Source: an uncultured Candidatus Kuenenia sp. (GTDB taxonomy: Bacteria; Planctomycetota; UBA11346). Taken from it: a stretch of DNA of 64,000 nucleotides. The stretch covers positions 5,249 to 69,248 of the forward strand of contig CAZZJC010000021.1 in the NCBI GenBank assembly GCA_964654285.1, given 5' to 3'. Shown here piece by piece: positions 1 through 59,887 of this stretch (its first letter is position 1; every line of letters begins with the position of its first letter). The notes under the pieces are model-generated. The model saw only the letters and a program-made list of their open reading frames with translations. It was not told the origin of the DNA and searched no databases. The position numbers and the translations under genes are program-made.

Positions 1-3000
1 CCGAGAATGTCGCCGTCTTCCCCAATGTGACCGCCTGATCCTCGGGCATGCTTGTCATTGCGGGTGCGGTCCCAGTCGGCTTCACGGTCAAAGTCGCAGC
101 ATTCGTCATGGTGATTCCGATGCTATTCGAAACGACCACCCGGAACAACGCACCATTATCCATGATGGATGCCGCGTTTGTGGTGAAGCTCGATGCCGTT
201 GCACCGCTTATCGTGGTCCAGGTCTTGCCAGCATCGTTCGAACGCTGCCATTGGAAGGTCATTGCAGACGCGCTCGTCGCAGAGCATGAGAACATCGCCG
301 GCTTTCCGACAGTAACCTCGTAATTCGCTGGATGTGAGGTGATCGCTGGGATCTCCCCGGGACTCGTTACAGCCAGGACCGCATCATCCGAGACCACACT
401 GCCCGCACGGTTGCTGGCAACCACGCGGAATCTGGCGTTGTGGTCGCCGATGACGGTTGCGGCGGTGATGTACGTCGCCGCGGTCGCACCGCTGATGGCC
501 GTCCACGTTTTGCCAGCATCGTTCGAACGCGACCACTGGAAGGTCGGCGCCGGCGTGCCGCTGGCCGCTGCGGTGAAGGTCGCGGTCTGGCCGACCGTGA
601 CCGACGCGTTGGCGGGTTGAGTGCTGATCGCCGGTGCCACCGTGGGGATGGTGGCCGTCAGGACGGCTACGTTCGATGTCGCGCTGCCTGCACTGTTGCT
701 GGCGACCACGCGGAATCGGGCGTTGTGGTCGCCAATGACCGTTGCCGGGGTGATGTACGTCGCTGCCGTGGCACCGGCGATCGCGGTCCAGGTGCCTCCG
801 TCATCGTTCGAACGCGACCACTGGAAGGTGGGCGCCGGCGTGCCGCTGGCCGCTGCGGTGAAGGTCGCAGTCTGGCCGACCGTGACCGATGCGTTGGCGG
901 GTTGAGTGCTGATCGCCGGTGCCACCGTGGGGACGGTGACGGTCAGGACAGCCGCATTCGACGTGGCATTGCCGGCGCTGTTGCTGGCGACGACGCGGAA
1001 TTGGGCGTTGTTGTCACCGATGACCATCGCGGCGGTGGTGTACGTCGCCGCGGTCGCACCGCTGATGGCCGTCCACGTTTTGCCAGCATCGTTCGAACGC
1101 GACCACTGGAAGGTCGGCGCCGGCGTGCCGCTGGCCGCTGCGGTGAAGGTCGCAGTCTGGCCGACCGTGACCGATGCGTTGGCGGGTTGAGTGCTGATCG
1201 CCGGTGCCACCGTGGGGACGGTGACGGTCAGGACAGCCGCATTCGACGTGGCATTGCCGGCGCTGTTGCTGGCGACGACGCGGAATTGGGCGTTGTTGTC
1301 ACCGATGACCATCGCGGCGGTGGTATACGTCGCCGCGGTCGCACCGCTGATGGCCGTCCACGTTTTGCCTCCATCGTTCGAACGCGACCACTGGAAGGTG
1401 GGCGCCGGCGTGCCGCTGGCCGCTGCGGTGAAGGTCGCGGTCTGGCCGACCGTGACCGACGCGTTGGCGGGTTGAGTGCTGATCGCCGGTGCCACCGTGG
1501 GGATGGTGACCGTCAGGACAGCCGCATTCGACGTGGCATTGCCGGCGCTGTTGCTGGCGACGACGCGGAATTGGGCGTTGTTGTCACCGATGACCATCGC
1601 GGCGGTGGTGTACGTCGCCGCGGTCGCACCGCTGATGGCCGTCCACGTTTTGCCAGCATCGTTCGAACGCGACCACTGGAAGGTGGGTGCAGGCGTGCCA
1701 CTGGCCGCTGCGGTGAAGGTCGCGGTCTGACCGACCGTGACCGACGCGTTGGCGGGTTGAGTGCCGATCGCCGGTGCCACCGTGGGGACGGTGACGGTCA
1801 GGACAGCCGCTTTCGAGGTCGCACTGCCGGCGCTGTTGCTGACCACGACGCGGAATTGGGCGTTATGGTCGCCGATGACCGTCGCCGGGGTAGTGTACGT
1901 CGCTGCCCTGGCACCGACGATCGCGGTCCAGGTGCCTCCGCCATCATTCGAACGCGACCACTGGAAGGTGGGCACCGGCGTCCCACTGGCCGCAACCGTG
2001 AAGGTTGCGGTCTGGCCAACCGTGACCGAAAGGTTGGCGGGCTGAGTGATGATCGCCGGAGCCGCGATGTTGTTCCCCCCCTGGCTGAGTCCGGTTACGG
2101 CAAGCGAGTAATCCTGATTGCCGTATCTCAGCGACCCCTTGTGGCTGACCGTCAGCGTGTAATTCCCCTGCATCGGCGCACTGATCAGAACCTGTTCCAC
2201 GTTATCGGTCGTATTGTCACCAGGAACAGCCTTGCAGTAGATTCCACCCCAATCCGTGTTCAGCGAACCCCGATCGAAGGGCGGATAGAAATCGCTGCCT
2301 ACGACAAATGGCATGACGAAGGGACGATAGACGCTGCCATCTGGGCCGATGAGTCGCAGGTCCAGATCATTCACCAGCGCCCCGGTGCGCGTGGTAATGG
2401 GCAAGCGAACGGAGGAAGCGGGTGCAGGATCAAGCCAGGCCAGGGTCACCCGGATCGGATTTGCTCCATCGCAGGTATAGCTTCGAGTGGAAACGGTTCC
2501 CTGAGCCAGGTTGGATTCCACGATGACCCCGGATGATGGCTGGTCAGCCTGGCGTTTCACGATGCTGCCCGCAGCCAGGACATTCACGTAACCCCAGCCG
2601 AAATTATAGTCCGGACCGGATACCCCCATGTCGTCCGCCGTGTTGATCAATAACGCCTTCAGGGTTGATGAGCGCAGATACTGACCGGGAAAACGTTTAC
2701 GGTAGTAGTCGATCAATACGACTGCACTTCCAGCCGCATTGGGTGATGACATGCTGGTACCGGTTCTACTGGCATAGTTATCATTGGGATAGGTTGATAA
2801 CAGACCTGAACCATTGGCAGTGAGATCCGGCTTGATCCGTCCACCAAAGGTTGGACCCCGGGATGAACTGGATTCCAATCCGACTGGTGCCACCACCCTT
2901 CCCTGGGCATCGCGTTCCAGGTCCAGGGCATTGGCGATGTCGAGACCGTTCTTGCTGATATTATTCATTCCAGCCATGGTATTTAAGGAATTTCCAGCGG

Positions 3001-4201
3001 AAAAGAACTGCAGATAGAAGGGGGTGTCGTATAATGCGCTATCCATGGATGAACTGGAATTATCGTAATAAGGTTCTTCAGTATGGCCATGACCGTCTGC
3101 CGGGCGTGGTCCGATGGCGCCCCAGCTCAGTGACGCATTGCCGACCACTGAACGATCGGGCTGTCCGGACGTATGCATGCCACCATTCAAAATGTGGGAT
3201 CCGTAGAGATTATAATAGGATCGGAACAACACCTCTGGCGCCATCCCCTTGGCCGCGGGATTGATGCCAGTAGCCCCGATGGTTCCAGCGACATGGGCGG
3301 CGTGTTCAGCATTGTACTGGGTACCGTAGCGGCCGATGATGCGCGAAACCGGGTTTGGCCCGGAAGTCATGAACTCGATATGGTCCGGGATCAAGCCAGC
3401 TTCATGCACCTGGACGATGAGCCCTGCTCCAGTAATGACGCCAACCGATGGATCGAAATCGAGGTTTTCCCGCACCCGGTTCGCATTCGTGCTGATGGCG
3501 GCATTGGCATTGGTGGTGGTCATCCACACGGGAACACCAGCCTCGAATCCGACCAGATGACGGCTCCTTCCGTCGGGATCCTGGCGGATCAGGGGGATGC
3601 CGCGATGAACCGCAACCAGGGGGATCAGGGCCGCGGACATGGTCTCCAACCGCTCCACCCAGGCCCCGTGACGTTGGCGTTCATCCGGTTTCAGATGCTG
3701 GCCATAGAGCTCGCGTGCAGCCAGGATGGCCCTGTGCAGGGTCGATTGATCGGTCGGATCCGCCTGGGGATTATCCCTGCGGAATTCCAGGTAACTTTGA
3801 TGATGCGGCGGTGGCAGAGCCTGGGCGATCGCATCCAGATCCTCAGGCATGACGGTTGACCTGCCGATCTGCGGGGTGCGAGCAACCCCGGATGCCTGGG
3901 GCCCGTCGACGGCTGAAAGTCCGCCCACCGGAATGACCCGGGTCGTATCGACTCGGGAACCTGAATCCGCCCCAGGATCAACGCCGACAGGCGTGGAGGC
4001 CGGGAATGACCTCTGCGCGCAGCCGTCCGGATGCCGCAACCCGGTTTCAACGGCTGGATGTTCCGACCCCATGGAACCGACGGCCTCAGGCACAGACGCT
4101 GCGGGTGCCTCCCGCTTCGAATTCCCCTGCTGCAGGAACAATGCGAGGATGAGTACGGCGACGATGGCAAGGCTCGTCAGCGCACGGGTGCGCATGGTCA
4201 T
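1..4201 (-). CDS. Secreted S8 subtilisin-like peptidase with C-terminal tandem Ig-like (95-aa) repeats; 3' end runs off left edge of window (partial)
   Basis: Reverse-strand translation from the ATG at 4199-4201 gives MTMRTRALTSLAIVAVLILALFLQ, which looks like a signal peptide. A GGAG RBS lies just upstream. Downstream are subtilase motifs: H-motif EHAAHVAGT and Ser-motif GTSMSSPNAAG. From about 2050 to 1 the protein is repeated ...PTVAPAISTQPANASVTVGQTATFTAAASGTPAPTFQWSRSNDAGKTWTAISGATAATYTTAA..., which is Ig-like. No stop codon appears before position 1. The gene is absent from the ORF track because no stop lies in the window. Confidence 0.8.
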   Translation of the reverse strand, partial: MTMRTRALTSLAIVAVLILALFLQQGNSKREAPAASVPEAVGSMGSEHPAVETGLRHPDGCAQRSFPASTPVGVDPGADSGSRVDTTRVIPVGGLSAVDGPQASGVARTPQIGRSTVMPEDLDAIAQALPPPHHQSYLEFRRDNPQADPTDQSTLHRAILAARELYGQHLKPDERQRHGAWVERLETMSAALIPLVAVHRGIPLIRQDPDGRSRHLVGFEAGVPVWMTTTNANAAISTNANRVRENLDFDPSVGVITGAGLIVQVHEAGLIPDHIEFMTSGPNPVSRIIGRYGTQYNAEHAAHVAGTIGATGINPAAKGMAPEVLFRSYYNLYGSHILNGGMHTSGQPDRSVVGNASLSWGAIGPRPADGHGHTEEPYYDNSSSSMDSALYDTPFYLQFFSAGNSLNTMAGMNNISKNGLDIANALDLERDAQGRVVAPVGLESSSSRGPTFGGRIKPDLTANGSGLLSTYPNDNYASRTGTSMSSPNAAGSAVVLIDYYRKRFPGQYLRSSTLKALLINTADDMGVSGPDYNFGWGYVNVLAAGSIVKRQADQPSSGVIVESNLAQGTVSTRSYTCDGANPIRVTLAWLDPAPASSVRLPITTRTGALVNDLDLRLIGPDGSVYRPFVMPFVVGSDFYPPFDRGSLNTDWGGIYCKAVPGDNTTDNVEQVLISAPMQGNYTLTVSHKGSLRYGNQDYSLAVTGLSQGGNNIAAPAIITQPANLSVTVGQTATFTVAASGTPVPTFQWSRSNDGGGTWTAIVGARAATYTTPATVIGDHNAQFRVVVSNSAGSATSKAAVLTVTVPTVAPAIGTQPANASVTVGQTATFTAAASGTPAPTFQWSRSNDAGKTWTAISGATAATYTTAAMVIGDNNAQFRVVASNSAGNATSNAAVLTVTIPTVAPAISTQPANASVTVGQTATFTAAASGTPAPTFQWSRSNDGGKTWTAISGATAATYTTAAMVIGDNNAQFRVVASNSAGNATSNAAVLTVTVPTVAPAISTQPANASVTVGQTATFTAAASGTPAPTFQWSRSNDAGKTWTAISGATAATYTTAAMVIGDNNAQFRVVASNSAGNATSNAAVLTVTVPTVAPAISTQPANASVTVGQTATFTAAASGTPAPTFQWSRSNDDGGTWTAIAGATAATYITPATVIGDHNARFRVVASNSAGSATSNVAVLTATIPTVAPAISTQPANASVTVGQTATFTAAASGTPAPTFQWSRSNDAGKTWTAISGATAATYITAATVIGDHNARFRVVASNRAGSVVSDDAVLAVTSPGEIPAITSHPANYEVTVGKPAMFSCSATSASAMTFQWQRSNDAGKTWTTISGATASSFTTNAASIMDNGALFRVVVSNSIGITMTNAATLTVKPTGTAPAMTSMPEDQAVTLGKTATFS
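48..2045 (-). repeat. Tandem array of ~285-bp near-identical units (at least 7 copies) encoding Ig-like domains of the S8 protein
   Basis: Plus-strand ORFs at 339-620, 621-905, 906-1190, 1191-1475, 1476-1730 and 1761-2045 are almost identical 94-aa antisense translations. Units 906-1190 and 1191-1475 differ by about one residue. A degenerate unit lies at 48-323. Confidence 0.9.
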
Positions 4202-4562
4202 GAATGAACTCCAGGAAGGAAAGAGCTGGGATTGATTTCCCGGCAAGCGGATCAGATTGTATCAGTGCGGGCCGGGATCGCGCGTGCCTATTTTGTCGGT
4301 TTCAGGAGGTTTTCATCGTGGCCGATCACACGCGCAGGGATCTGCGTGACATCATCCGGATCCGACCGTATGGCACCTGTCGCCGTGACGCCATGCGCTC
4401 GGCCGGCGCGAGCCGGCGAGACGGTATTCGTCAGGACATCAGGCAAATCATCCGGGCGCTCCTGCCCGTGGTCGCGGATCAGGCCGCAACCCCAACCCCG
4501 GCTTCATTCCCGCCTGGGCGGAGACGAACTGCCTTCCGCCGTCGCGAACGGTCACCGACGGC

Positions 4563-5567
4563 TCACCTGAGCCGCGTCCGCGCATCCCGTTCCAGCTGCT
4601 CCTGGCGCCAATGATCAGGGGATTTACCGAAGATCCGTCGGAATCCGGCGACGAACGACTGGACGCTGTTGAATGAGCACTTGCGGGCGATGAGCGCGAG
4701 CGACTGATCGGGATTCTCGAGCAGGTATCGGGCAGACGTCTGATAACGCAGATTGCGCAGATAGGCTCCGGCGCTCTGCTTCCTGGCCGCCAGGAACCGG
4801 GTGTTGAAGACCGAGGTGCTCAGGCCGACCATGCCGGCCAGCACCGGTACGGTAAGGCCATAGTCGAAACAGCGTTCGGCAATCCGGGTTGATTCCTCTA
4901 TGACCGGGTCGGCGCATGGTTCGCGACCGGGCAGGAACCGTCCTTCCAGGATTTCAGCGAGAATCCCTCCGAGCCGTCCCTGACAGGTCAGGACGCGCAT
5001 GCCGAAGGATCCTTCCGGACTCCACCACAAGTCACAGATCCGACGGATGGCATACGCGTATTTCCTGCCCAGATCGCCGGTGATGTGCATGGTCATATCC
5101 TGGCCAAACAGCTGCATCCCGGTGGGATGAGGAGGGGACAGGTTCACCGGTCGGTATCCGCCCACCTCCCTGGTCGGCTGCCTGGGTCGTGACACCAGTT
5201 CGAAATCCAGGCGCCAGAACAGAGATGGAGCCCCATTCACCAACCTGATCCTGGCACCATCCACCAGCAGGATCGAGTCCGGATCCAGCCGCAGCCTCCT
5301 GCCTTCGTCAGTCCGGAACTCCAGGGAGGCTCCGATGGTCGTCAGCAGCACCCAGTCACCATAAAAGGGGAACAGGAACTTTTCATGCAATAGACGATTG
5401 GCAAACGACGGGTTTCCCAGCTGCATATTGCGCCAGCGATGCGCCCGCATGATGACTGGCGTCAATGCATCCAACAGCATCGGATCCATGCGGACATTTC
5501 CCACCGCAACGCCTGGGAGACAACCGGCAGCGTCAGGATTGCCGATGACTGTACGGCGGTGTCCCAC
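4563..5567 (-). CDS. AraC-family transcriptional regulator (N-terminal ligand-binding domain, C-terminal AraC HTH)
   Basis: C-terminal ...IAERCFDYGLTVPVLAGMVGLSTSVFNTRFLAARKQSAGAYLRNLRYQTSARYLLENPDQSLALIARKCSFNSVQSFVAGFRRIFGKSPDHWRQ is a typical AraC double HTH. The start is ambiguous, with candidates at 5567, 5489, 5450 and 5426. Confidence 0.7.
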   Translation of the reverse strand: MGHRRTVIGNPDAAGCLPGVAVGNVRMDPMLLDALTPVIMRAHRWRNMQLGNPSFANRLLHEKFLFPFYGDWVLLTTIGASLEFRTDEGRRLRLDPDSILLVDGARIRLVNGAPSLFWRLDFELVSRPRQPTREVGGYRPVNLSPPHPTGMQLFGQDMTMHITGDLGRKYAYAIRRICDLWWSPEGSFGMRVLTCQGRLGGILAEILEGRFLPGREPCADPVIEESTRIAERCFDYGLTVPVLAGMVGLSTSVFNTRFLAARKQSAGAYLRNLRYQTSARYLLENPDQSLALIARKCSFNSVQSFVAGFRRIFGKSPDHWRQEQLERDARTRLR

Positions 5568-5627
5568 TCGGGCCGGACCGCACGGGAATGCGGGCTGGCT
5601 CCGCCGGACGGATCCAGGGGTTTCCGG

Positions 5628-6821
5628 CTATCGCGACCGCGGCGCTGTGCGCCGGACCGCATGATCCGTGTTCGACGCCGCACCCGGCGGACCGGCAGGC
5701 CGCAAACCGGAGCCGGCCATGCGCCACAGCGTCGGGGAAGCCCCATATCGCTTGCGGAAGGCTGCGGCAAACGTGGTCGGATGGGAAAAACCGGCGAGAT
5801 GCGAAACGCGTTCGATGGCGTCCTCGCCGTCGAGCAGCCTCTGCGCCGCCCGTTGCAACCGCTGTTCACGCAACCACTGGGCCGGAGGACAGCCGGTGGC
5901 AGCGGTGAACCGGCGCTGAAATTGCACGAGTGACAGCTTGGCCGACCGGGCCAGCCGAGCCAGGCGGATGGGCCCGTCCGAACCAGCCGCCATGCGCATC
6001 GCACGCACCACCGGATCGACCGCCAGCAGATCCGGGGTGGAATCATGGACTTCCAGCACCGGGGGGACCACCACCCGGCGGAATGGCCCGCGGTCTCCCG
6101 AGAATTGCCGATGCAGCAGCAGGGCGGCATTCCAGCCGACCACCGACATGGGAACCGCCAGCCGGGTCGGGATCGGCAGGTTTCCGAGGTCATCGGTCAG
6201 CGTGGATTGGCATCCGACGACCGCATAATCGCGCCCCAGCACCAGACCGACCGCCAGGCATTCCGAGAGGAACCACATCGCGGCGCGTTCCATCGGAATG
6301 AACATGGCCACCGGACCGGAGCGCGACCGCATCCACTCGCCCAGATGCCGGCGCTGAACCTCCTGGCTTGCGTCGCCGGCCAGGGGTTGGAACTGATCGC
6401 AGCTGCGGGCACGGGTCTGCAGGTGGTCGATGAAGGCTTTGCGCCTGACCTCGTAGTGAGGTCTGTTGACCACCCGGTTCAGGTAGGTCGAGATGGACTG
6501 ATACCCGCGCTCCAGCAGGAATTCAGCCGCCTTTCTTCCGATCGCCACATCATCGGAGATGACGCAGGGCAGGCCTTCGCGGTTGTGTTTGAGCGAGACG
6601 CAGGCGATTCCCTGGGCCTGCAGGTCGAGGATGCGCGTGTCATCGAGGCCGCCGACCAACCCATCGACACGGGGCCGGACCGCATGTTGCATGCCGGGAT
6701 CATAGACGACCTGCCAGTCGAGGGCGTGTTGACGGGCGTAGGCGACCGTTCCCCGGACCAGCCCCTGCGCCGACGACTCCAGCGGCTGGCAAACGGCAAT
6801 GATGCGTTTCCCTCGATCCAT
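5628..6821 (-). CDS. XylR-like regulator: periplasmic-binding-protein-like sugar-binding domain fused to AraC-type HTH
   Basis: N-terminal MDRGKRIIAVCQPLESSAQGLVRGTVAYARQHALDWQVV... resembles a LacI/PBP-type sugar-binding fold. C-terminal ...SLVQFQRRFTAATGCPPAQWLREQRLQRAAQRLLDGEDAIERVSHLAGFSHPTTFAAAFRKRYGASPTLWR is an AraC HTH. Confidence 0.7.
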   Translation of the reverse strand: MDRGKRIIAVCQPLESSAQGLVRGTVAYARQHALDWQVVYDPGMQHAVRPRVDGLVGGLDDTRILDLQAQGIACVSLKHNREGLPCVISDDVAIGRKAAEFLLERGYQSISTYLNRVVNRPHYEVRRKAFIDHLQTRARSCDQFQPLAGDASQEVQRRHLGEWMRSRSGPVAMFIPMERAAMWFLSECLAVGLVLGRDYAVVGCQSTLTDDLGNLPIPTRLAVPMSVVGWNAALLLHRQFSGDRGPFRRVVVPPVLEVHDSTPDLLAVDPVVRAMRMAAGSDGPIRLARLARSAKLSLVQFQRRFTAATGCPPAQWLREQRLQRAAQRLLDGEDAIERVSHLAGFSHPTTFAAAFRKRYGASPTLWRMAGSGLRPAGPPGAASNTDHAVRRTAPRSR

Positions 6822-7099
6822 GCGGCGAATTCCTAGCCAGGGCTGGGGCGAACACCGGTTCGGGCCGGCATGGAGAAGACCGGTCGGTTCAGATGATTAC
6901 CGTGAACCGCGCGTGGACAACCCGGGAGTGGGTGACTGATGGCGAATCCATCGGCGAGAACCGTCCACGTACAGGTCATCGGCCACGTATGAACCTGCGC
7001 CGTCCGGCAACCCCGGCCACAACACCGGTCCGCCTTCCCGCTGCCCTGCCTTCCCTGATTTTGGCGTCCTTGATTCCACCTTCGATCCGGAGCCCCTCC

Positions 7100-8767
7100 A
7101 TGCGATACGCACCCCTGGCGAAACCCTTCATCCTGTTGGCCGTCATGACGGCGGCGGCGCAGGCCGAGCAGACGGCCGGCTACGGGCGCGATGGCTCGCG
7201 CATCTTCCCCGACCGCAAACCGCCCACCGCCTTCTCACTGCCCAAGGATCTGCGTTGGGAATTCCGGCTGAAGGGCTGGGGGCATTCCTCGCCGGTCGTC
7301 GTCCAGGATCAGGTCATCGTGACCATCGAAGCCACACCGGATTGCGATTGGCCCCAGCTGGTCAGCGTCGACCTGAAGACCGGCAAGGAACGTTGGCGGG
7401 CCGTGCTGGATGGGGCCGAGGCCATCTCGGGTGGAGATGCCGCCAAGCGCAAGACGATCACCGACGACTGGCATCTCTTCCGGCAGAAGACCATAAAGAA
7501 CTACCGTTTCCGTGAGGCATTCCGGCAGAATCCGGACAAGGCCCTGAAGGACTGGATCGCCGAGGGCGGGACCTATTCGCCACCCGACCACAAGCCCAAG
7601 ATGTCGCATCCGTGCTATGCCCCGGCCGACGCAGCCCGTGACCGCTGCATCGCCGTCGGCCTGGTCGCGGAAACCTACCACGAGATACGCAACCAATCCG
7701 GCATCGATGCGATCGGCCATACGTTTTCCACCCCGGCCTCGGATGGCAAGACCATCTATGTGGCTACAGCCCAGGGATTCTATGCCGCCTTCGATCTCAC
7801 AGGGAAACGCCTCTGGATGACCTATTCGAAGGGGAACATCCACAACGGCGACACCTGCTACAACGGCCGCTCGCCCATCCTGTACCAGAACCTGCTCATC
7901 TCAGACCCGACCAACAAGCTCCGCGCCTTCGACGTGGTCAGCGGAAAACTGCTCTGGTCCGACGATGCCCCCGCTGGTCCGATGGGGGGGGACGTCGCGT
8001 CGAACAATGACGAGGGCGCGCACACGATCCAATCCCCGATGGTGATGACGGTGGGGGGCAAGGATGTCCTGATCGCAGCAGGCGGCCATTTCTATCTGCT
8101 GCCCGAAGGGAAGCGGGTGAAGATGGACGGGTGGCGCGAATTCGGGATGCAGACCCTGGTCAAGCATGATGAACGCGATGTGGTCTTCTTCGGTGGTGAA
8201 GGCGAACATTGCGGCTGGACGGGCAAGGGCATCTGTCCGACGCCCCCCCCGGCGGCGATCCGTTTCGCCTGGCAGGGTCAGGATCTCAAGGCGACGATCC
8301 TCTGGAGCGGGATCAACGGCAAGCCCTTTGGCGGAAACCTCCCCTGGATGGTCTACAATGCCGGGAAGCTGTTCTGCCCCGGCAGGGGCGCCGTCGATGG
8401 CAAGACCGGGAAGATCCTGTTCGGCGATTTCAACACCAAGCGCATCTATTCGCTGACTGAGACCCCGCGCACCGGCCACCTGCTGCAGATCGCAAACGGC
8501 CATGTCTACGGGCTCCACGGCACGACCAACGTCAAGCCGCAACAGGGGGCCGGATTCATGGATGTCTGCACGATCGATGGGAAGGGCGTCGCCTCCAGCA
8601 TCATCCCTCCCGAGGAGTTCGACGCGTCCGAAACGGCGGCCTGGAGCGGTTGCGCCCTCTATTACAACATCGTGGGCCGATTCTCGCATGGATGGCAGTT
8701 CACCTTCAGCAAGGATGCCATCATCCTGCGGAGCAATCTGCGCATCTATTGCATCGGCCCGAAATGA
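7100..8767 (+). CDS. Secreted PQQ-like beta-propeller repeat protein (BamB/PQQ-repeat family)
   Basis: ATG at 7100 gives MRYAPLAKPFILLAVMTAAAQAEQ, a signal peptide. Repeated W-containing blades follow (GKERWRAVLDG, SGKLLWSDDA). The gene is paralogous to the partial gene at 62869. The ORF-track start at 6893 is probably too far upstream. Confidence 0.6.
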   Translation: MRYAPLAKPFILLAVMTAAAQAEQTAGYGRDGSRIFPDRKPPTAFSLPKDLRWEFRLKGWGHSSPVVVQDQVIVTIEATPDCDWPQLVSVDLKTGKERWRAVLDGAEAISGGDAAKRKTITDDWHLFRQKTIKNYRFREAFRQNPDKALKDWIAEGGTYSPPDHKPKMSHPCYAPADAARDRCIAVGLVAETYHEIRNQSGIDAIGHTFSTPASDGKTIYVATAQGFYAAFDLTGKRLWMTYSKGNIHNGDTCYNGRSPILYQNLLISDPTNKLRAFDVVSGKLLWSDDAPAGPMGGDVASNNDEGAHTIQSPMVMTVGGKDVLIAAGGHFYLLPEGKRVKMDGWREFGMQTLVKHDERDVVFFGGEGEHCGWTGKGICPTPPPAAIRFAWQGQDLKATILWSGINGKPFGGNLPWMVYNAGKLFCPGRGAVDGKTGKILFGDFNTKRIYSLTETPRTGHLLQIANGHVYGLHGTTNVKPQQGAGFMDVCTIDGKGVASSIIPPEEFDASETAAWSGCALYYNIVGRFSHGWQFTFSKDAIILRSNLRIYCIGPK

Positions 8768-9117
8768 GCGGACCGCACCCCCGGTTCGGAGGCCTTCCGT
8801 AAGCGGGCCCGACCCGAAGCGATCCGCCCTTCCTCCGGTTCCGCCACCCTGCTTCCGGCGTCACGACCTGCCGGATCTCCCGGCGGCGGTTCCTGCCTGC
8901 CCCGGCGTGGGGCAGGCAGGGCGGTGGCCACGCCTGCCGCCAGGGAACTGGGACTCCGCCAGCAATCTGCCACGCCTGCCGCGCCGGCTCGGGATCGGCG
9001 GGGACGACCACAATCCACCACCGGCCTGCATGGGAGGCCTTTCGCCCACTCCGGGCCGGACCCAAGCACTCCCCATTCCCCCCCTGTGGACGGGACGGCG
9101 CAGGCACACAAGAGAAA

Positions 9118-47739: not shown

Positions 47740-48031
47740 AGGGCACACCATGGCCGACCAGCCCGCCATCGTCTTCAACGGCACTGCGATCCCGGCGACC
47801 CCGACCACGCCGGGGAGCGATCTGCTCGGGCTGATGCTCGACGCCAAGGCGAACGTGCGGTTCCTCTGCATGGGCGGTTCGTGCCGGCAATGCCGGGTGG
47901 AACTGGTCTCGGGCGGCGAGCATCTCGAACCCAAGTCGGACGGCGAAGCGTGGGGTTGCCCGGATGATGGCGCGCGTCTCGCCTGCCAAGCCATCCATCG
48001 CGGCACCGGCACCGTGGTGCTCAAGCAATGA
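47740..48031 (+). CDS. Small 2Fe-2S ferredoxin-like protein
   Basis: MADQPAIVFNGTAIPA...CMGGSCRQCRV...LACQA has a CX4CX2C...C pattern. A GGGAGAGGG RBS is present. The stop overlaps the start of the next gene (ATGA). Confidence 0.6.
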
Positions 48032-50073
48032 TCGACCATCCCTTCGCCATCCAGATCATCGCCGAGCCGGAACAGCGCGGCACCTTGGCCAGCAGGATCG
48101 AACGCCTGCCCGACTCCGATCGGCCACGTTGGCGCCTGACCTTCACCGCCGGTGCGGAGGTATTCCGGGGTCGGTTGCGCATCGTGCTGCCGCTCGCCAC
48201 GCCGACGGTGCCGTGGTTCCTCATCCCCGGCTATTTCTACGGCCAGGGCCGCACCGATCCGAAACTCAACACACCGACGCTCGGTCGCCTCGGCGCCGAC
48301 CGCTGGACCGCGCCGGCGTGGGACATCGCGCTGGAACGCGCCGCGTATCCGTTGGTGCTCGCCTTCCACGGTGGTCGCTGGCGCGGCCTGGACGCCGAGC
48401 CGCACCATCGCCTCTACGGCGCCCCCGACCGGCCGGCGACCTGGGGCAACGACGAGCCGCAGATCGGTCTTGGGCTCGCCTGGGACGACGGTCAGGGCCA
48501 CGTCGCCATCAACCTGCCAGCGTTCGAGGGGCCGCTGCGCCAGGTGCGCCACCGCCATGACGGCGCGTTGGCGCGGCGGCTGACCCTGCCGGCCGGGGCG
48601 CGACTCGAACTCGACGTCGGCGTCTGGGATTTCCCTGGCGACGCCCACGGCTACCAGCCGGTGCTGGAACGGCTGTACCGCGAACTCAAGCCGCAGCATC
48701 CCAGCGCAGCCGAGGAACCGCACGACGAGCTCGCCGCCTGCGCCGCGCACGGCTTGAAGGCCTGGCACTGGACGCCGGCGGCCGGCGGCCGGCCGGGCTA
48801 CTTCGTCTACACCGCCGCGCTCGACCGCAGCGTCGAGTTCAACGCCAACGTCAACCGGAAGACCTCGCTCGGTTGGCACTTCGACGCCACCGGCTTCGTC
48901 GGCGGCTTCCCGGTCGCGTTCGGGCTGGCCTGGCAGGGTCTGCGGCAGAACGATGCGGAATCGCTGGCGATCGTCGACCAGTACGTCGACCGCCTCTGCC
49001 GCGAGGCGCCGGCGCCCAACGGCCTGTTCCGCACCAGCTACCATCCCGGCCGCGCGCGCACACCGAACGGCGAATTCGCCAACGGGCCGGACACGCCCGG
49101 TTATGGATCCTGTTGGCAGGGCGGCACCGCGGTGGCGCATGCGCGCACCACGGCGGATGCATCGTTCCACCTCGCCCGGCTCATCGGCCTCTTCGGCGCT
49201 GAACGCCGGCCAGCGTGGCGGTTGGCGCTCCGCCGATCGCTGGAGGCCGCCCTGCGGTTCCAGGATGCCGATGGCCGGCATCCGCAGCTGTACGACCTGG
49301 CCGCGGATCGGCCGCAGCAGCGCGACGGCTGCGGCGGCCTGACCTGGATCCCGGCGATGGAAGCGGCGCATGATCTCTTCGCGGACGATCCGGATCTCCA
49401 GGAACGTCTGCGCGATTCCATGCTTGCCGCCGGTGCGGGCTACGCCCGCGACATCGAGGCGGAACGCATCTACGGCGCGCCCGAGGATGTCAGCCTGTCG
49501 CCCACCAGCGAGGACGGCTACGCGGCGGTGATGGCCTATGCCGGTCTGCACCGGCGCTTCGGCGCTGCTCCGGGTGGAGGCGATCCGCGTTGGCTGCCGC
49601 TGCTGGTGCGCGCCGCCGACTGGATGCTGACCTGGCGCAAGGCCTACAATGTGCGCTTCGATCCGCGCAACATCCTTGGCGCAGGAGGACTGCGCACGGT
49701 GGGGGGCGACTTCGCCTCCATGAACAACAACCACCTGCACGTCTACGGCATGAACTGCCTCGGCGAGCTGCATCGGCTGACGGCGATCACCGGCAATCCG
49801 TACTACGCCGAGCGCGCCGACGACCATTTCCGCTTCACCTGCCAGCTGCTGTGCAAGGTCGACGGCCAGTGGAACGGCCAGCGCGGCATGCTGACGGAAC
49901 AGTTCTACACCTCCGACTGGTCGATCTGGGACGGCTGGGATCCGACCCCGGCGCACGTGCAGAAGGGCACCCTGATGGGCTTCAGCCATTCGTGGTGCAT
50001 CAACATGGTTCTGCTGGGGCTGTCTTCAGCGGGACACTGCCGGCTCTGCCCTGGACCCGGATTGACCAGATAG
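48028..50073 (+). CDS. Uncharacterised 681-aa protein, possibly (alpha/alpha)6-barrel hydrolase/lyase-like, translationally coupled to the ferredoxin-like gene
   Basis: A long ORF with coding character. Segments such as ...GGDFASMNNNHLHVYGMNCLGELHRLTAITGNPYYAERADDHF... and ...SHSWCINMVLLG... suggest a helical-barrel enzyme. No confident family assignment. Confidence 0.5.
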   Translation: MIDHPFAIQIIAEPEQRGTLASRIERLPDSDRPRWRLTFTAGAEVFRGRLRIVLPLATPTVPWFLIPGYFYGQGRTDPKLNTPTLGRLGADRWTAPAWDIALERAAYPLVLAFHGGRWRGLDAEPHHRLYGAPDRPATWGNDEPQIGLGLAWDDGQGHVAINLPAFEGPLRQVRHRHDGALARRLTLPAGARLELDVGVWDFPGDAHGYQPVLERLYRELKPQHPSAAEEPHDELAACAAHGLKAWHWTPAAGGRPGYFVYTAALDRSVEFNANVNRKTSLGWHFDATGFVGGFPVAFGLAWQGLRQNDAESLAIVDQYVDRLCREAPAPNGLFRTSYHPGRARTPNGEFANGPDTPGYGSCWQGGTAVAHARTTADASFHLARLIGLFGAERRPAWRLALRRSLEAALRFQDADGRHPQLYDLAADRPQQRDGCGGLTWIPAMEAAHDLFADDPDLQERLRDSMLAAGAGYARDIEAERIYGAPEDVSLSPTSEDGYAAVMAYAGLHRRFGAAPGGGDPRWLPLLVRAADWMLTWRKAYNVRFDPRNILGAGGLRTVGGDFASMNNNHLHVYGMNCLGELHRLTAITGNPYYAERADDHFRFTCQLLCKVDGQWNGQRGMLTEQFYTSDWSIWDGWDPTPAHVQKGTLMGFSHSWCINMVLLGLSSAGHCRLCPGPGLTR

Positions 50074-50414
50074 GCGCAACACCGCGTCCTTCCGCTACCT
50101 ACCCGCTTGCCCGGATGGGCGGGGGGCGCTGCGCTGCCCCGCCACGTCACAAATAGGCGCTACGCTGTGCTGTACTGCCCTGGCCGCTGGTTCTCATGCT
50201 GAATGAGGTGTCATCGGACTGGGTGGAAGCTTTGCCGCGCCCTACGGCTTTCTTCTGCGGGGCGCTGCCGGCAGAACCCCGCACGTCAGCGCGCGCGCCA
50301 AAGGGCAAACGGCTCCGCGTTCATCACTTCCCCTTCCCACGGCTTCAACCGGCCGGCGGCCGTGGGGTCGAGGGGCGATGGCCCCTCGCGGGGGCCGGGG
50401 CAGCGCCCCGCACG

Positions 50415-51383
50415 TCAGTTGCCGGTCCAGAGGAACGCCATGCCGGGTTGGAGCAGGCGGGTCAGGTCGCCGGCGTCGAGGTTGATGCCGTTGACGACCT
50501 GCGGGGGGTGGGTCTGGGCGTCGGCGATGAAGCCGAAGGACAGGGTGCTGCGTTCGTAGCGGAAGACGGCGGCTTCCTTGACCTTGGCCAGGCGGCGGGC
50601 TTCGGCGAGGGCTTCGGGCAGGTGGCCGAAACCGTCGACCAGGCCGAGGGCCAGGGCCTGTTCGCCGGTGTAGACGCGGCCGTCGGCGAGCGGGCGCAAT
50701 GTCGCTTCGGCGGCAGCGGTGTCGGCCGGCACCGGGCCTCGGCCCTTGCGGCCCTGCACCACCACCGCCAGGAACTGGGCGTACAGCTGGTCGATCATGC
50801 CTTGGATGAGGGCACGTTCGTCGTCCTTCATCGGGCGGAACATGCTGCCCAGATCCTTGCGCGGGCCGCTGGTGATGACGTTCATCCCGACCCCGATCTT
50901 GCCTGCCAGACCCATGATCTCGGGGCTCATGAAGATCACCCCGATCGATCCGGTGAGCGTTCCTCTGCCGCAGAGCACGGTGTCGGCAGCGCATGCGATG
51001 TAGTAGCCGCCACTGGCGCAGACGCTGCGCTGAAGAGCCACCACCGGCTTGCCCTTGGCACGCAGGGCGAGCACCCGGGCGTGCACGGCATCGCTCGCCA
51101 CCACGTCGCCGCCGGGCGTGTCGAGGGTCACCACGATGGCCTTCACCGCGTCATCCTGTTCGGCCATGCGCAGCTGCCGGCAGACTTCATCCATGCCGCC
51201 GCCTTCGCTGAAACGGCTGCCGCCAAAGCGGATCGGGCCCCTGATGTCGACCACCGCGATGCGGGCCGGGCCCGAGCCTTCCTCCTCGATGGCGGTCTGG
51301 CGCCAGCTGCGGTCGTGGCTGATGCAGCCGGCGACGAACAGGACGCAGGTGCAGAGGGCTGCGGCGGACAGGATGCGGCGCAT
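50415..51383 (-). CDS. sppA: Signal peptide peptidase SppA (36K type, S49 family)
   Basis: MRRILSAAALCTCVLFVAGC is a signal or lipoprotein-like leader. ...IVVTLDTPGGDVVASD... and ...SVCASGGYYIACAADTVL... match the S49 ClpP/crotonase fold. It is the real gene inside the artefactual 1387-aa ORF. Confidence 0.8.
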   Translation of the reverse strand: MRRILSAAALCTCVLFVAGCISHDRSWRQTAIEEEGSGPARIAVVDIRGPIRFGGSRFSEGGGMDEVCRQLRMAEQDDAVKAIVVTLDTPGGDVVASDAVHARVLALRAKGKPVVALQRSVCASGGYYIACAADTVLCGRGTLTGSIGVIFMSPEIMGLAGKIGVGMNVITSGPRKDLGSMFRPMKDDERALIQGMIDQLYAQFLAVVVQGRKGRGPVPADTAAAEATLRPLADGRVYTGEQALALGLVDGFGHLPEALAEARRLAKVKEAAVFRYERSTLSFGFIADAQTHPPQVVNGINLDAGDLTRLLQPGMAFLWTGN

Positions 51384-51629
51384 GGGACGGCTCCAGGTCG
51401 GGGATCCGCAGCGGGTGCGGACGGCAGAGAGGACTACCGGCCCGAGGCAGGGCCGGAAGGGTCCAGCCGTCGATCCTGCGGACGCATCGACGGGCTGCCC
51501 TGCCTGGGTATGTCCGCGGTCCAGCCGTTTTACGAACCGATCCGGCGCGGGATCCGGGCGGGATGCGGGTCTGCAGAGATACGGCGCACCGGGCCGCGCG
51601 GCCTGGACTTTCCTGGGGTATGCTGGTCC

Positions 51630-54600
51630 ATGCCTGAAGTTTCGACGAGCGGCCATGGCCGGGAATTGGCGAACGGGACCAGCGTCGGGATGTACCGCAT
51701 CACGGGGCAGCTGGGCAAGGGCGGCATGGCGGTGGTCTACCGCGCGGTGCATGCGGCGCTCGGGCGCGAGGTCGCGCTCAAGGTGGTCTCGCCGCAGTTC
51801 GCCGAGGATCCGACCTTCCGTTCGCGCTTCCTGCGCGAGGCGCAGGTGGCGGCGCGGATCAACCATCCCAACGTGGTGACCTGCTTCGATGCCGGCGAGG
51901 GCGACGGCCGGCTGTTCATGGCCTTGGAACTGGTCACCGGCGGCGATCTGCTCGATCTGCTCGATCGCCGTGGCGGCCGGCTCGACGAGGTGCTCGCGCT
52001 CGGCCTCATGCGCGACGCCCTGGCCGGGCTGGAGGCGGTCGAGGCGGCGGGCCTGGTGCACCGCGATATCAAGCCGGCCAACATCTTCATCACCGACGGC
52101 GGCCAGGCCAAGGTCGCCGATCTCGGCCTGGCGCGGGTCAGCGGCAACGACCAGGTCACCCAACCGGGCGTGATCATGGGCACGCCGGCGTACATCGCGC
52201 CGGAACAGGCCAACGGCGTGCCGGATCTCGACATCCGCGCCGATCTCTACTCGCTCGGGGCGTCGCTCTACCATCTGCTGACCGGCCAGCCGCCGTTCTC
52301 GTCCGACAGCGCGGTGGCGACGCTGATCAAGGCGCTCAACGAACCGGTGCCCGACCCCGCCATCCTGCGGCCTGACCTCACGCCCGGCTGCCGCACGCTG
52401 ATCCTGCGCCTGATGGAAAAGGACCGCAACCGCCGCCATGTCTCGGCCCGGCAGGCGCGCGAAGAGGTCGAAACGCTGCTCACCGGCCGCCAGCCCGAGC
52501 TCGCCTCCGGCGGCCATCCCGGGGTGCGCACCCAGCGCCTCGCCGCCGCGCCGGTGCGCGATCCGGCCCTGGTGCGGGCGGTGGAGCAGCGCGACGCCGG
52601 CCAGGTGGAACCGAACGCCGAGCGGCAGCGCACCACGGCCGCGCCGGCGCAGCCCACGACCGAACGGCGGCGCAGCGAGACCAGCCTCGCCCCGTCGCGC
52701 CCGGATTCCGGCAGCAACCGTCCGGCCTCGGCTTCGGATCGCCAGCGCACCCAGGCAGGCGAACGTCCGGCCACGCCGACGCCTGCGGCGCCAGGCCCGG
52801 GTACCGACCGCCAGGGCCCTGCTCCTGACCGCCAAGGCTCCGCCGCTGACCGCCACGGCTCCGCCTCGGACCGCCAGCGGGTGCAGACCGGGGATCGTTC
52901 GCGCTCCAGCCCGGCGGTGACCGCGAAGTCCGGCGGCCCGGCCACGCCGGCTCCGCGACCGGCCACGCCCGCCCCGCCCGGTTCCGGCCAGCCGCCGGCG
53001 AACCTGCGCATCGACCCGACCCAGCTCGCCCTCCTGGTCAAGCGCATCATCGTGGATTTCGAGGCCATGACGGCAGCGATCGTCCTCGCGCCCGGCGCCA
53101 GCTTCCCGCGCTTCCTCCTCGACCAGATCATCAGCGGGGCGGGCATCGTGCATGGCCTCATCCCCGGCGCGATCCACGAGACCACGCGCACCAGCCAGGT
53201 CGCGCGGCGGATCGTGCTCGCGCGCGGCGATCCGCCCAGTCCGGGCTTTCCCGGCCGCAACGTGCGCGGCGAGGACATCCCGGCGCTGGAGGTGCCGCTG
53301 ACCATCCGCATCAGCGACGACGCGATGACCGCGTGGGCGTTCAGCAAACCGAACCTCATCGTCACCCGCGAGGCGCTGGAGCCGATCCTCAAGCGTTCGG
53401 GCATCCGCTACGGACTCGACCTCGATGCGCTGCGCAAGCTCGTCGACGGGCCACCCGCCCCCGATGGCCGCCGCGCCATCGCCCGCGGCCGGCCGATGGA
53501 TCCGGGCCGCGCAGCCGGCTTCGTCCCGCCCGGACGCGAGGGCGGCACGCCGGATCTCGCGACCGTGGCCAACCTGCAGGAAGTGCCGGCGGGCACCGTG
53601 CTCGGCACCTTCACCGACGCCGAACCCGGCATCCCCGGCATGGACGTGCTCGGACGCGAACTGCCCTGCCCGAAGCTGGAAGCGATCCCGCCGGAACAGC
53701 TCGCCGGCGAGGGCACCGAGATCGGGCGCGACCGCGACGGCCGGCTCGTCCTGCGCTCCACCCGCCAGGGCATGGTCGTCCGCAATCCCGACGGCGTGGT
53801 GCGGGTGGTCGGCGTGTTCGAGGTCAAAGGCGACTTCGGCCCGGGCGACCCGCCGATCGAGACCAACGACGTGGTGGTCATCCGCGGCGCGGTGAAGGAC
53901 GGCGCGAAGATCAGCAGCGCCAGCGATGTCTTCGTCTGCGGCGACCTGCACGACGCCGAGATCAGCGCCGGCGGCAGCCTCCAGGTCGAAGGCGCCATCC
54001 ACGGCGGCGACCAGGCCCTGGTGGTCGGCGAGACCATCGTCGCCGAATCGTGCGAGGTCCGCCGCGTGCTCGCGAGCTCGGTGCGGATCACCGGCGAGGT
54101 GCGCAACTGCGAGATCCGCGCCACCGGCAAGATCAGCGTCGGCAGCATCGCCGGCGGCAGCCTGGTCGCGGGCGGCGATGTCGACATCGGCACCGCCGGC
54201 GACCTCGCCGGCACCACCACCGAGCTGTGGGCCGGCCACAGCCTGAGCTATTCCGAGCAGGAGCGCCTGTCGCGCCTCGACGACCAGCGCCGCGAGGCCG
54301 AACGCACCCGCCTGGTCGACGAGGCCAAGCTGCTGCACGCCGACCTCGCCGACGCCGAACTGAAGAAGAAGCGCCACGCCAGCGCCAGCTACGCCAACCG
54401 CGACCACCTCCAGGCGATCGAGGCCAAGCTGCGCCAGTTCGAATCGGCGCAGGAGAACCTGCGCAACGCCGCCGAGGAGCACCGCAAGGCGCTGGAGAAG
54501 CGCCGCGCCGCCAGCGACCGCCTGAGGAAGCTCGGCGACAACACCGAGGCCCGCGTCTCGGTGAAGGTCGTCGCGCACAAGGGCGTCGTCGCCCGCCTCG

Positions 54601-54659
54601 CCGACATCGAACCCGAGGTGCTGGGCGAATCCAGGCTGCGCTACACCTTGAAGATGTGA
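51630..54659 (+). CDS. Ser/Thr protein kinase fused to a C-terminal DUF342/FapA-like beta-helical domain via a long disordered linker
   Basis: Kinase motifs GQLGKGGMAVVYRA...VALK, HRDIKPANIF, DLGLA and GTPAYIAPE. Then about 170 aa of low-complexity sequence with a repeated (S/P)DRQ motif. Then ...VVIRGAVKDGAKISSASDVFVCGDLHDAEISAGGSLQVEGAIHGGDQALVVGETIVAE...CEIRATGKISVGSIAGGSLVAGGDVDIG, which are FapA-like G/D beta-helix turns. A coiled coil ends the protein. It is the real gene inside the artefactual 1487-aa ORF 50196..54659. Confidence 0.8.
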   Translation: MPEVSTSGHGRELANGTSVGMYRITGQLGKGGMAVVYRAVHAALGREVALKVVSPQFAEDPTFRSRFLREAQVAARINHPNVVTCFDAGEGDGRLFMALELVTGGDLLDLLDRRGGRLDEVLALGLMRDALAGLEAVEAAGLVHRDIKPANIFITDGGQAKVADLGLARVSGNDQVTQPGVIMGTPAYIAPEQANGVPDLDIRADLYSLGASLYHLLTGQPPFSSDSAVATLIKALNEPVPDPAILRPDLTPGCRTLILRLMEKDRNRRHVSARQAREEVETLLTGRQPELASGGHPGVRTQRLAAAPVRDPALVRAVEQRDAGQVEPNAERQRTTAAPAQPTTERRRSETSLAPSRPDSGSNRPASASDRQRTQAGERPATPTPAAPGPGTDRQGPAPDRQGSAADRHGSASDRQRVQTGDRSRSSPAVTAKSGGPATPAPRPATPAPPGSGQPPANLRIDPTQLALLVKRIIVDFEAMTAAIVLAPGASFPRFLLDQIISGAGIVHGLIPGAIHETTRTSQVARRIVLARGDPPSPGFPGRNVRGEDIPALEVPLTIRISDDAMTAWAFSKPNLIVTREALEPILKRSGIRYGLDLDALRKLVDGPPAPDGRRAIARGRPMDPGRAAGFVPPGREGGTPDLATVANLQEVPAGTVLGTFTDAEPGIPGMDVLGRELPCPKLEAIPPEQLAGEGTEIGRDRDGRLVLRSTRQGMVVRNPDGVVRVVGVFEVKGDFGPGDPPIETNDVVVIRGAVKDGAKISSASDVFVCGDLHDAEISAGGSLQVEGAIHGGDQALVVGETIVAESCEVRRVLASSVRITGEVRNCEIRATGKISVGSIAGGSLVAGGDVDIGTAGDLAGTTTELWAGHSLSYSEQERLSRLDDQRREAERTRLVDEAKLLHADLADAELKKKRHASASYANRDHLQAIEAKLRQFESAQENLRNAAEEHRKALEKRRAASDRLRKLGDNTEARVSVKVVAHKGVVARLADIEPEVLGESRLRYTLKM

Positions 54660-58678: not shown

Positions 58679-59635
58679 TCAGCGCAGATGGCGGCGCATC
58701 AGCCGGCGGGTGATGGCATGCAGGCCTTCGGGATCCTCGTTGTCATGCCCATAGTAGTACACGGATAGATGGTCCGGCAGCGGCCCGGACAGATAGGCCT
58801 CGAGATTCGTCTCGTAGATGCCATGGCTCGAGGCCGGGGTCAGCATGTTCTCGACCAGGGCGAAGGTGCCGAGCCCGGCGGCCTCGGCCTCGGCGGCGAA
58901 GCGGGCGCGGATGCGCGGGTCATCGATGCGGTATTTGAACCAGCCGACCTCGCCGCTGCGACGCCACTGGGGCGCCAGGTTGCCGTCGTAGCCATGGAAG
59001 TTCAGACCCGCCGCCCGGCTGACCACCTGGGTGAAACCGGGCGGATCGGTGTCCTGGGCGAAGAGGGTGATGGACAGTTCCGGGCGCAGGCTGCGGGCCA
59101 GCAGATTCAGCTCGCTGAGCAAGTCGCGGTAGGCGACTGCCGTGTCGGCCGGGGTTCCGGGCCGGCCCAGGGCGGCGATGGTGTCGGGGTGGCTGCTGCC
59201 CAGCTTGGTGCCCTTGGGTTCGTCCCAGATGATGCCATCGACGCCGTGATCCGCGACGAGGGTACGTACCAGCTTGCGCAGGTGCTCGCGGTAGAGCGGG
59301 CTATGCAGGCAGGCGAGGGGCCCAGTGACCGGTTGGGGCCCGGGTTCGCCGCATTCCGGATGGGCGGCCAGGAACAGGCTCGGCATCAGGGGCGCACCGG
59401 CCATCCGTCCGCCGATCCGGCTCGGGATCGCCAGCGCCCGCATCCCCCTGGACTGGATCATGCGCACCTGGCGGGCGAAGGTGTGGTATCCGTAGACGTC
59501 ATCGCTCTCCGAATAGGACAGGGCGACCGCGTTGAAACCGCACGCCGCCATCTCCGCCAGATCCTCCTCGATCTGATGCGGGATGACGGTCCAGTTCTGG
59601 TAGCTCAGGGTGTAGGCGGATATCAGCGTTGGCAT
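58679..59635 (-). CDS. Hypothetical protein (possible TIM-barrel glycosyl-hydrolase-like)
   Basis: MPTLISAYTLSYQNWTVIPHQIEEDLAEMAACGFNAVALSYSE...GVDGIIWDEPKG.... It is the tail of ORF 58679..60802, whose upstream part is an artefact. Confidence 0.45.
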   Translation of the reverse strand: MPTLISAYTLSYQNWTVIPHQIEEDLAEMAACGFNAVALSYSESDDVYGYHTFARQVRMIQSRGMRALAIPSRIGGRMAGAPLMPSLFLAAHPECGEPGPQPVTGPLACLHSPLYREHLRKLVRTLVADHGVDGIIWDEPKGTKLGSSHPDTIAALGRPGTPADTAVAYRDLLSELNLLARSLRPELSITLFAQDTDPPGFTQVVSRAAGLNFHGYDGNLAPQWRRSGEVGWFKYRIDDPRIRARFAAEAEAAGLGTFALVENMLTPASSHGIYETNLEAYLSGPLPDHLSVYYYGHDNEDPEGLHAITRRLMRRHLR

Positions 59636-59887
59636 GGGTTCTCGTCGCGTACAGGAGTGACTGCCCGGTGCACCGTGGACACCGGCGAGGGTCCAGGCGA
59701 TCGCGCAGCAGTCAATCTTGACGCCCATGCCTGATCCGCCTGATGCGGATGCCAGCCGCCGACCCGCTCCTCCCCGGCTGGAAGCAGCCGCCGCTGAGCC
59801 GGCAGCGAAGACCGTTCTGCCAGGCGCAGGCGGGATGGTCCGGGTGGGCGTCTTGTCCGGATCCGGGGACGGCCCTACCGTCCGGGC

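Follow-up and report, generated by a model that had tools for sequence, protein, structure and literature searches.

A subtilase of KP-43 architecture with glutamate at the triad-acid position and a tandem array of immunoglobulin-like domains in an uncultured Planctomycetota bacterium

Peptidase family S8 has been named as the classical Asp-His-Ser (D-H-S) family (PMC9549277). KP-43 consists of a subtilisin-like N-domain plus a jelly-roll β-barrel at the C-terminus, and its catalytic triad is formed by Asp30, His68, and Ser255 (PMC7471176). The members of the OSP subgroup, the KP-43 clade, share about 92% mutual identity (PMC9549277). For prokaryotic subtilases, an E-H-S family was defined by Siezen, Renckens & Boekhorst in 2007 (PMC3937732). 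SprP (PA1242) of Pseudomonas aeruginosa was assigned to this family; it is an exported protease with activity toward both skim milk and Suc-AAPF-pNA, and the exchange S499A renders it inactive (PMC3937732). Here, we analyzed a stretch of 64,000 nucleotides (the window) from an uncultured Candidatus Kuenenia sp. (Planctomycetota; assembly GCA_964654285.1, contig CAZZJC010000021.1, positions 5,249 to 69,248 of the forward strand), which carries a subtilase gene at its left end. We consider it probable that this gene encodes a large exported S8 subtilase with KP-43 architecture and at least eight I-set immunoglobulin (Ig)-like domains, which would work according to the mechanism proposed below. 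Its host probably uses the protein, among others, to degrade proteins outside the cell.

The coding sequence is located on the minus strand (2..4201), as are all features of this gene described below. It is complete at its 5' end and cut at its 3' end by the window edge. Translation from position 4201 down to 2 yielded 1400 codons with zero stops, and the product starts with MTMRTRALTSLAIVAVLILALF. Upstream, the frame is closed by a stop 20 codons before the ATG at 4201, which is the first start to follow this stop and has a GGAG ribosome-binding site 7 nt ahead of it. A previous sequence-only reading of this DNA had proposed that the reverse strand encodes a large exported subtilase of family S8, and stops in the minus-strand frame between 4201 and 1 would have spoken against it. 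None was found, and the Pfam match to family S8 (E 1.2e-23) together with an N-terminal hydrophobic segment is in line with the proposal.

The match to Pfam PF00082 (Peptidase_S8) extends over residues 258-537 and covers the whole profile (positions 1-288 of 288) with 84.3 bits, compared with a cut-off of 21.8. On the basis of this match and of phmmer and Foldseek alignments to KP-43 (1wmd), we assigned residues 231-545 (2567..3511) to the subtilisin-like catalytic domain. It is directly followed by a C-terminal jelly-roll β-barrel of the KP-43 type (residues 546-714; 2060..2566), which was identified by phmmer, AlphaFold2, and Foldseek and which can be aligned to the C-domain of KP-43. KP-43 (1wmd) and SubHal (5fax) were the best sequence relatives of solved structure, with E 6e-19 for phmmer to 1wmd and E 4e-50 for the family profile. 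These alignments begin close to the mature N-terminus and extend to residue 703 of our protein, and that of phmmer reaches residue 433 of KP-43. When we modeled residues 1-708 with AlphaFold2, the mean predicted local distance difference test (pLDDT) score was 77.6 and the catalytic and barrel domains mostly reached 85-97; the barrel is all-β, with values mostly above 90. The top Foldseek match of this model was again 1wmd (E 1e-28, target-normalized template modeling score 0.71), followed by SubHal (5fax) and Tk-SP (3afg). Thus, the protein shares with KP-43 and SubHal of Bacillus (MEROPS S08.123) the direct succession of catalytic domain and jelly-roll as well as a long N-terminal stretch ahead of the enzyme. 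In contrast, KP-43 carries Asp30 where our protein has Glu267, and it ends after the barrel whereas the window protein continues with at least eight Ig domains; the hosts, Bacillus and Planctomycetota, also differ. With about 25% identity to KP-43, our protein does not belong to the OSP subgroup proper and only the architecture is shared. A P-domain model had been suggested as a check by the sequence-only reading, but PF01483 was not among the Pfam matches of the protein at a whole-protein E <= 0.01, and the barrel after the catalytic domain is the KP-43-type jelly-roll. We also considered a proprotein convertase (kexin/furin, S8B) type. This assignment was rejected, as there is no P-domain and Kex2 and furin were only distant Foldseek matches.

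To the sequence-only reading, the putative Asp region had appeared as VQVHEAGLI. When we aligned the protein with 40 homologs, the family consensus at the acid was VGVWDxG and Glu267 (VQVHEAG; 3401..3403) filled the Asp column. The profile derived from the 40-homolog alignment placed this column on the Asp of the VAVADTG motif of SubHal, which we took as the homolog of Asp30 of KP-43. Thus, the classical D(T/S)G motif of the D-H-S order is absent, and the alignments to homologs and to SubHal/KP-43 confirm that Glu267 occupies the position of the catalytic Asp. The other catalytic residues, of which His and Ser had already been recognized, are the catalytic His300 (EHAAHVAGT; 3302..3304), the oxyanion-hole Asn404 (SAGNS; 2990..2992), and the nucleophile Ser483 (GTSMSSP; 2753..2755). 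Each of them is invariant (121/121) among the query and its 120 homologs, and in the same alignment 106 of the 121 sequences have Asp as triad acid, whereas 15 have Glu. On a neighbor-joining tree, the Glu-bearing sequences form seven separate groups, which corresponds to at least six independent switches. In a separate sample of 82 S8 open reading frames (ORFs) from named genomes, two of which end before the acid column, we found Asp in 76 and Glu in four, with His, Asn, and Ser retained. Taken together, Glu occupies the acid position in about 5-12% of the subfamily and the other three residues are always kept.

The E-H-S family is recognized by Glu in place of the triad Asp together with conserved His and Ser. 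Judged from the alignments, Glu267 is the known functional E-H-S variant of the subtilase triad, and the protein therefore still falls within S8. The enzyme of the window is most likely active, because His, Asn, and Ser are conserved and because SprP, in which Glu replaces the catalytic Asp and His and Ser are retained in the same way, is an active protease. SprP differs from our protein by a Pseudomonas-specific DUF domain and by the lack of an Ig array. Since Asp and Glu interchange repeatedly in the present clade, E-H-S is here a recurrent state and not the property of a single lineage. In this KP-43-like clade, which spans the PVC group (Planctomycetota, Verrucomicrobiota, and relatives) and Bacteroidota, the acid has flipped at least six times with His, Asn, and Ser constant, and this supports the concept that the subtilase triad can freely adopt E-H-S as a functional state and that E-H-S is not a mark of inactivation.

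The N-terminal segment (residues 1-27; 4121..4201) has the features of a signal peptide or signal anchor. It consists of the n-region MTMRTR and a 17-residue hydrophobic core, ALTSLAIVAVLILALFL, with a mean Kyte-Doolittle hydropathy of 2.86; this is the sole transmembrane-like stretch in the 1400 residues, and AlphaFold2 modeled residues 7-23 as a helix. The following linker (residues 24-116; 3854..4132) is rich in Gly, Ser, Ala, and Pro and disordered, with pLDDT below 50 throughout. Next comes a folded domain of four helices and a β-hairpin (residues 117-230; 3512..3853; pLDDT about 85-96), which we presume to be the pro-region. The β part of this domain is kept across the subfamily and stops in the alignment just ahead of the invariant residues N231 and A234. 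The junction (residues 229-235) is a low-confidence part of the AlphaFold2 model, and residue 11 of SubHal aligned close to it in the family profile. By analogy, we infer that the segment before N231/A234 is the pro-region. A classic I9 propeptide was also considered; Pfam gave no match to it, and the modeled domain is of the helical-plus-hairpin type.

Downstream of the barrel, the remainder of the protein is a tandem array of Ig-like domains. According to the sequence-only reading, at least seven copies of a 95-residue module were present and the array left the window. We counted seven complete 95-residue units (residues 715-1379; window 65-2059) plus 21 residues of an eighth, and the array continues past the window. 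Units 1-6 (residues 715-1284; 350..2059; I-set) have their borders at 1775-2059, 1490-1774, 1205-1489, 920-1204, 635-919, and 350-634. The diverged unit 7 (65-349), in which Pfam matched Ig_2 at residues 1285-1373, and the first 21 residues of unit 8 (2-64) make up the rest (2..349). The modules had also been called near-identical. This is true for units 1-6, with mutual identities of 77-99%, but not for units 7 and 8, which share about 50-60% with the others. Tandem Repeats Finder reported a period of 285 bp for positions 397-2063, where it counted 5.8 copies at 90% matches. At the DNA level, the identity among units 2-4 amounts to 96-98%; only 1-3 of their codons show non-synonymous and 4-8 show synonymous differences. 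This near-identity, which includes the DNA level, shows recent tandem duplication or gene conversion.

Pfam recognized I-set (PF07679)/Ig_3 domains in seven stretches from residue 715 on (E 1.9e-61). The AlphaFold2 model of units 6-7 consists of two all-β domains with a pLDDT of 96.2, and Foldseek matched it with tandem I-set pairs of FGFR, Robo, and titin. For a single unit, the best solved match was a phage tail protein with repeats of the same type (9c2d_S, E 2.5e-21), followed by I-set domains of Robo1 and titin. When we searched with units 6-8, 368 proteins were found at E <= 1e-5, and all of those listed were I-set/Ig_3 proteins annotated as "immunoglobulin domain-containing." With I-set repeat proteins of phages and bacteria such as 9c2d_S, the window protein shares the module, its arrangement in tandem arrays, and the signature …TQP…V..G…F.V.A.G…YQW…ISGAT…Y…D.G.Y.V.V.N..G..TS..A.LTV. 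Units 1-6 contain no Cys and the sole Cys of the array is C1306 in unit 7, so that the disulfide between strands B and F that eukaryotic Ig domains typically have is missing. This is usual for bacterial Ig-like domains.

An Asp-box (S-x-D-x-G-x-T-W, for instance SRSNDGGKTW) occurs once in each of units 1-7, with 28 bits to PF02012 compared with a cut-off of 27. In the AlphaFold2 model, it is located in a hairpin between strand C and the short C' strand. Thus, the motif lies within an Ig sandwich and not in a sialidase-like β-propeller blade; Copley, Russell and Ponting reportedly described Asp-boxes outside propellers in 2001. The usual unit comprises about 89 residues with a C-C' loop of six residues (YQWQKNGTAISGAT), whereas the unit of the window has 95 residues and a loop of 12 residues with the Asp-box (FQWSRSNDGGKTWTAISGAT). 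Among the matches listed, the motif was found in 4 of 120 hit proteins, with nine occurrences against 318 detected Ig units. The module as such is thus widespread in bacteria, and the Ig unit of the window represents one of its minority variants.

A protease head on a series of β-sandwich domains is also found in PrtP, ScpA, and SpyCEP (Gram-positive cell-envelope proteinases and C5a peptidases) and in the myxosortase-dependent M36 metallopeptidases of NF038112. Our Ig array matched the C-terminal repeat region of the latter family in NCBIfam (E 5.6e-18), and a layout of protease, Ig array, and sorting signal therefore exists elsewhere. These proteins belong to other catalytic subfamilies or classes and carry other types of β-sandwich. 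In them, the series is closed by a sorting or anchor signal; the C-terminus of the window protein lies beyond the window.

To place the enzyme among its relatives, it can be compared with uncharacterized S8 peptidases from Verrucomicrobiota, Kiritimatiellota, Lentisphaerota, Planctomycetota, and Bacteroidota. With 30-43% identity, they share its conserved N-terminal segment as well as the catalytic domain and the barrel, and in a database of 5.8 billion clusters no S8 relative exceeded the 43% of the closest one. What follows the barrel differs. The relatives carry PKD, Calx-beta, P-domain, or fn3 domains, dockerin-like tails, or C-terminal domains of the type IX secretion system (T9SS), whereas the window protein has the Ig array. 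The precomputed Pfam lists of the 120 nearest S8 relatives contained no I-set domain (0/120). A single weak match to the Ig unit was found in one of the 82 genome-derived relatives, which comes from a Brevifollis metagenome-assembled genome (MAG). The fusion of an S8 protease with an Ig array is thus rare. The components are all known (KP-43-type S8 enzymes, E-H-S triads, bacterial I-set arrays, Asp-boxes outside propellers); their combination and the Asp-box variant of the Ig unit are uncommon, and we see no sign of a new mechanism in this gene.

Several further features of these relatives were observed. The Brevifollis ORF (L006, 7580-18445) encodes a giant S8 protein of more than 3622 residues, which has Glu at the acid position and its weak Ig match at residues 3340-3420. 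Many relatives from Verrucomicrobiota share the end tail …(K/R)F(L/M)RL(R/K)(V/F)xxP, those from Planctomycetota have a dockerin-like end (D..G.I.F.DF..FA..W), and those from Bacteroidota end like a T9SS C-terminal domain (…KKI(V/I)…). These differences look like phylum-specific sorting or attachment. The closest named homolog, encoded in an Opitutales MAG (JBMYOQ010000023.1), is surrounded by genes for a sulfatase, a GDSL esterase, a DLH/S9-like hydrolase, and a β-propeller lyase-like protein, which looks like a polymer-degradation neighborhood.

The base composition of the gene is uneven. GC content at third codon positions (GC3) increases from 0.59 in the catalytic domain to 0.67 in the barrel and to 0.79 in the Ig array, whereas the GlnA, GAPDH, leucyl-tRNA synthetase (LeuRS), and GlgB genes of the window reach 0.91-0.96. 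Two AraC-family genes next to the protease gene (0.71, 0.78) and a PQQ-like propeller gene (0.80) are also low. Positions 1-9000 of the window look like a compositional island that is mosaic even inside the S8 ORF. These data suggest that the first 9 kb or so were acquired horizontally or are poorly ameliorated, and that protease head and Ig array differ in their histories. The low, mosaic GC3 and the lack of a close ortholog suggest a horizontally acquired, domain-shuffled gene. The nearest named neighbors of the S8 half belong to the Opitutales and to Rariglobus (Verrucomicrobiota).

On the basis of these domains, we propose the following mechanism. The N-terminal hydrophobic segment would direct Sec-dependent export. 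The roughly 200 residues before Asn231 would serve as linker and as a pro-region that aids folding and, by analogy with other subtilases, is removed or displaced at maturation. The triad Glu267-His300-Ser483 would then cleave peptide bonds with the help of the Asn404 oxyanion hole, and the jelly-roll is predicted to be packed against the catalytic domain as in KP-43. The Ig units, which are connected by short Pro-rich linkers (…TVPTVAPAI…), may form an extended, semi-rigid stalk; at about 4 nm per domain, at least eight units would exceed 30 nm. Such a stalk could keep the enzyme at a distance from a C-terminal attachment point outside the window or could tether it to polymeric substrates, and these two roles are compatible with each other. 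A number of points weigh against this explanation. The hydrophobic N-terminal segment could be an uncleaved anchor, and the presumed pro-region has no Pfam match to the I9 propeptide family. The copy number within units 2-4 could be mis-assembled given their high identity. The GC3 deviation could partly stem from amino acid composition or expression level instead of horizontal transfer. Finally, C-terminal anchoring and the spacer role are a conjecture, with the C-terminus lying beyond the window.

The strongest alternative concerns the role of the array. In this scenario, the Asp-box I-set domains would chiefly be a binding module. They would adhere to prey, particles, or host surfaces via the glycans or proteins there and thereby concentrate the protease on its substrate. 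Such a role has been proposed for Ig-like domains on phage particles, and among solved structures the unit matched the phage tail protein 9c2d_S best. Moreover, the window variant has a specific surface feature in its enlarged C-C' loop with the Asp-box, and the closest named homolog of the protease lies among sulfatase, esterase, and lyase-like genes. However, near-identical repeats without diversification of their loops better fit a spacer, and the Asp-box is a structural hairpin motif that is not known to have a ligand function. We therefore regard a chiefly binding function as possible but doubtful, and it would be compatible with the stalk mechanism and not exclusive of it.

A combination of these ideas with the compositional data would be a recently acquired chimera, in which an Opitutales-like E-H-S head was fused in a Planctomycetota genome to an expanding Asp-box I-set array acting as a length-variable, ligand-binding stalk. 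We consider this scenario unlikely. If it were true, the number of repeats and the Asp-box loop would tune the distance from the cell at which the protease acts and the surface that it acts on.

Even less probable is a pseudoprotease, in which the exchange of Asp for Glu has killed catalysis and the protein has a binding or signaling role like that of the Clostridioides difficile Csp pseudoproteases. A canonical D(S/T)G motif is indeed lacking, there is weak NCBIfam similarity to CspC/CspBA at residues 444-541, and pseudoproteases with a subtilase fold do exist (PMC7200643). However, the Csp matches reach 36 bits compared with cut-offs of 675-1250 and are confined to the region of the Ser motif. 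Glu retains the carboxylate, and His300, Asn404, and Ser483 are intact together with their motifs. All 15 Glu-bearing members, which stem from at least six lineages, keep His, Asn, and Ser. This would not be expected under relaxed selection in decaying pseudoenzymes, but it is expected if Glu serves as triad acid. The E-H-S subtilase SprP is active (PMC3937732). The sequence-only reading had left the catalytic status uncertain; the missing D(S/T)G motif stands, but the doubt is largely removed by Glu at the triad-acid position, by the intact His, Asn, and Ser, by the recurrence of this exchange, and by SprP. The Csp-type class, which is characterized by loss of triad residues and motifs, was rejected as an assignment, with His and Ser present, the acid conservatively replaced, and the NCBIfam scores far below cut-off.

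An assembly artefact, in which the repeats of another Ig gene were joined to the S8 gene or copies were collapsed or expanded, would be in keeping with the 96-98% DNA identity of units 2-4 at a repeat period of 285 bp, which short reads hardly resolve, with the GC3 step from 0.59 in the protease part to 0.79 in the array, and with the lack of any other S8 protein of the subfamily carrying such an array (one weak case among 82), but we judge it very improbable since the frame is unbroken across the barrel-Ig junction and all unit borders, the identity between units is graded (99% to 50%) instead of that of exact copies, and no second copy of the module was found elsewhere in the 64-kb window.

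As had been recognized before, the S8 gene does not appear in the ORF list, since its frame remains open up to the window edge. Instead, the list shows a plus-strand ladder of ORFs of 84-94 residues under the array (339-620, 621-905, 906-1190, 1191-1475, 1476-1730, and 1761-2045). The claim that this ladder is artefactual agrees with our data: the ORFs are in the list, and a Pfam scan of the antisense ORFs 906-1190, 440-2536, and 3173-3859 gave no credible match. The antisense ORF 440-2536 (plus strand, 698 residues) spans the Ig array and the barrel without a stop and could be annotated by a naive gene caller; it is an artefact of high GC and repeat structure. For annotation this means that an ORF caller that needs a stop in the window misses a gene of more than 4.2 kb and yields an antisense ladder, which is to be expected routinely for tandem Ig arrays in high-GC genomes.

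The upstream intergenic region (4202..4562, minus strand, 361 bp) presumably contains the promoter in addition to the GGAG site read from the sequence; our scan of it detected no sigma-70-like site, promoter, or terminator. An Rfam scan of the whole window gave no structured RNA, and an exact 50-mer from the S8 catalytic domain had no match in the genome or metagenome contig collections. Upstream of this region and on the same strand follows an AraC-family regulator (4563-5567, minus strand) in tandem with a second one (5628-6821, minus strand) that has a periplasmic-binding-protein-like sensor domain. The pair are possible local regulators of the S8 gene; it is not found beside the closest named S8 homolog (JBMYOQ010000023.1).

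Past the AraC pair, the window encodes a PQQ-like β-propeller protein, GlnA, a chemoreceptor, GAPDH, GlnD, GlgB, a GH38 mannosidase, LeuRS, and a fusion of a Ser/Thr kinase with FapA, and it is ordinary chromosome. The nearest LeuRS relatives bearing organism names are all from Planctomycetota, and the best match is 94% identical. When we compared the contig of the best LeuRS relative (L081) within ±10 kb of its LeuRS gene, it was syntenic with positions 35.9-50.0 kb of the window at 81-90% DNA identity. The kinase-FapA fusion (50196-54659, plus strand, 1487 residues) is unusual. It carries the Ser/Thr kinase at residues 500-754 and FapA_N plus the FapA β-solenoid at residues 1036-1470, and the synteny with L081 stops just before it, at about 50.0 kb of the window. 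Two further ORFs with high GC3, 58679-60802 (minus strand, 707 residues) and 48028-50073 (plus strand, 681 residues), had no Pfam match at E <= 1e-5. The latter is kept in the L081 contig at 13367-15382.

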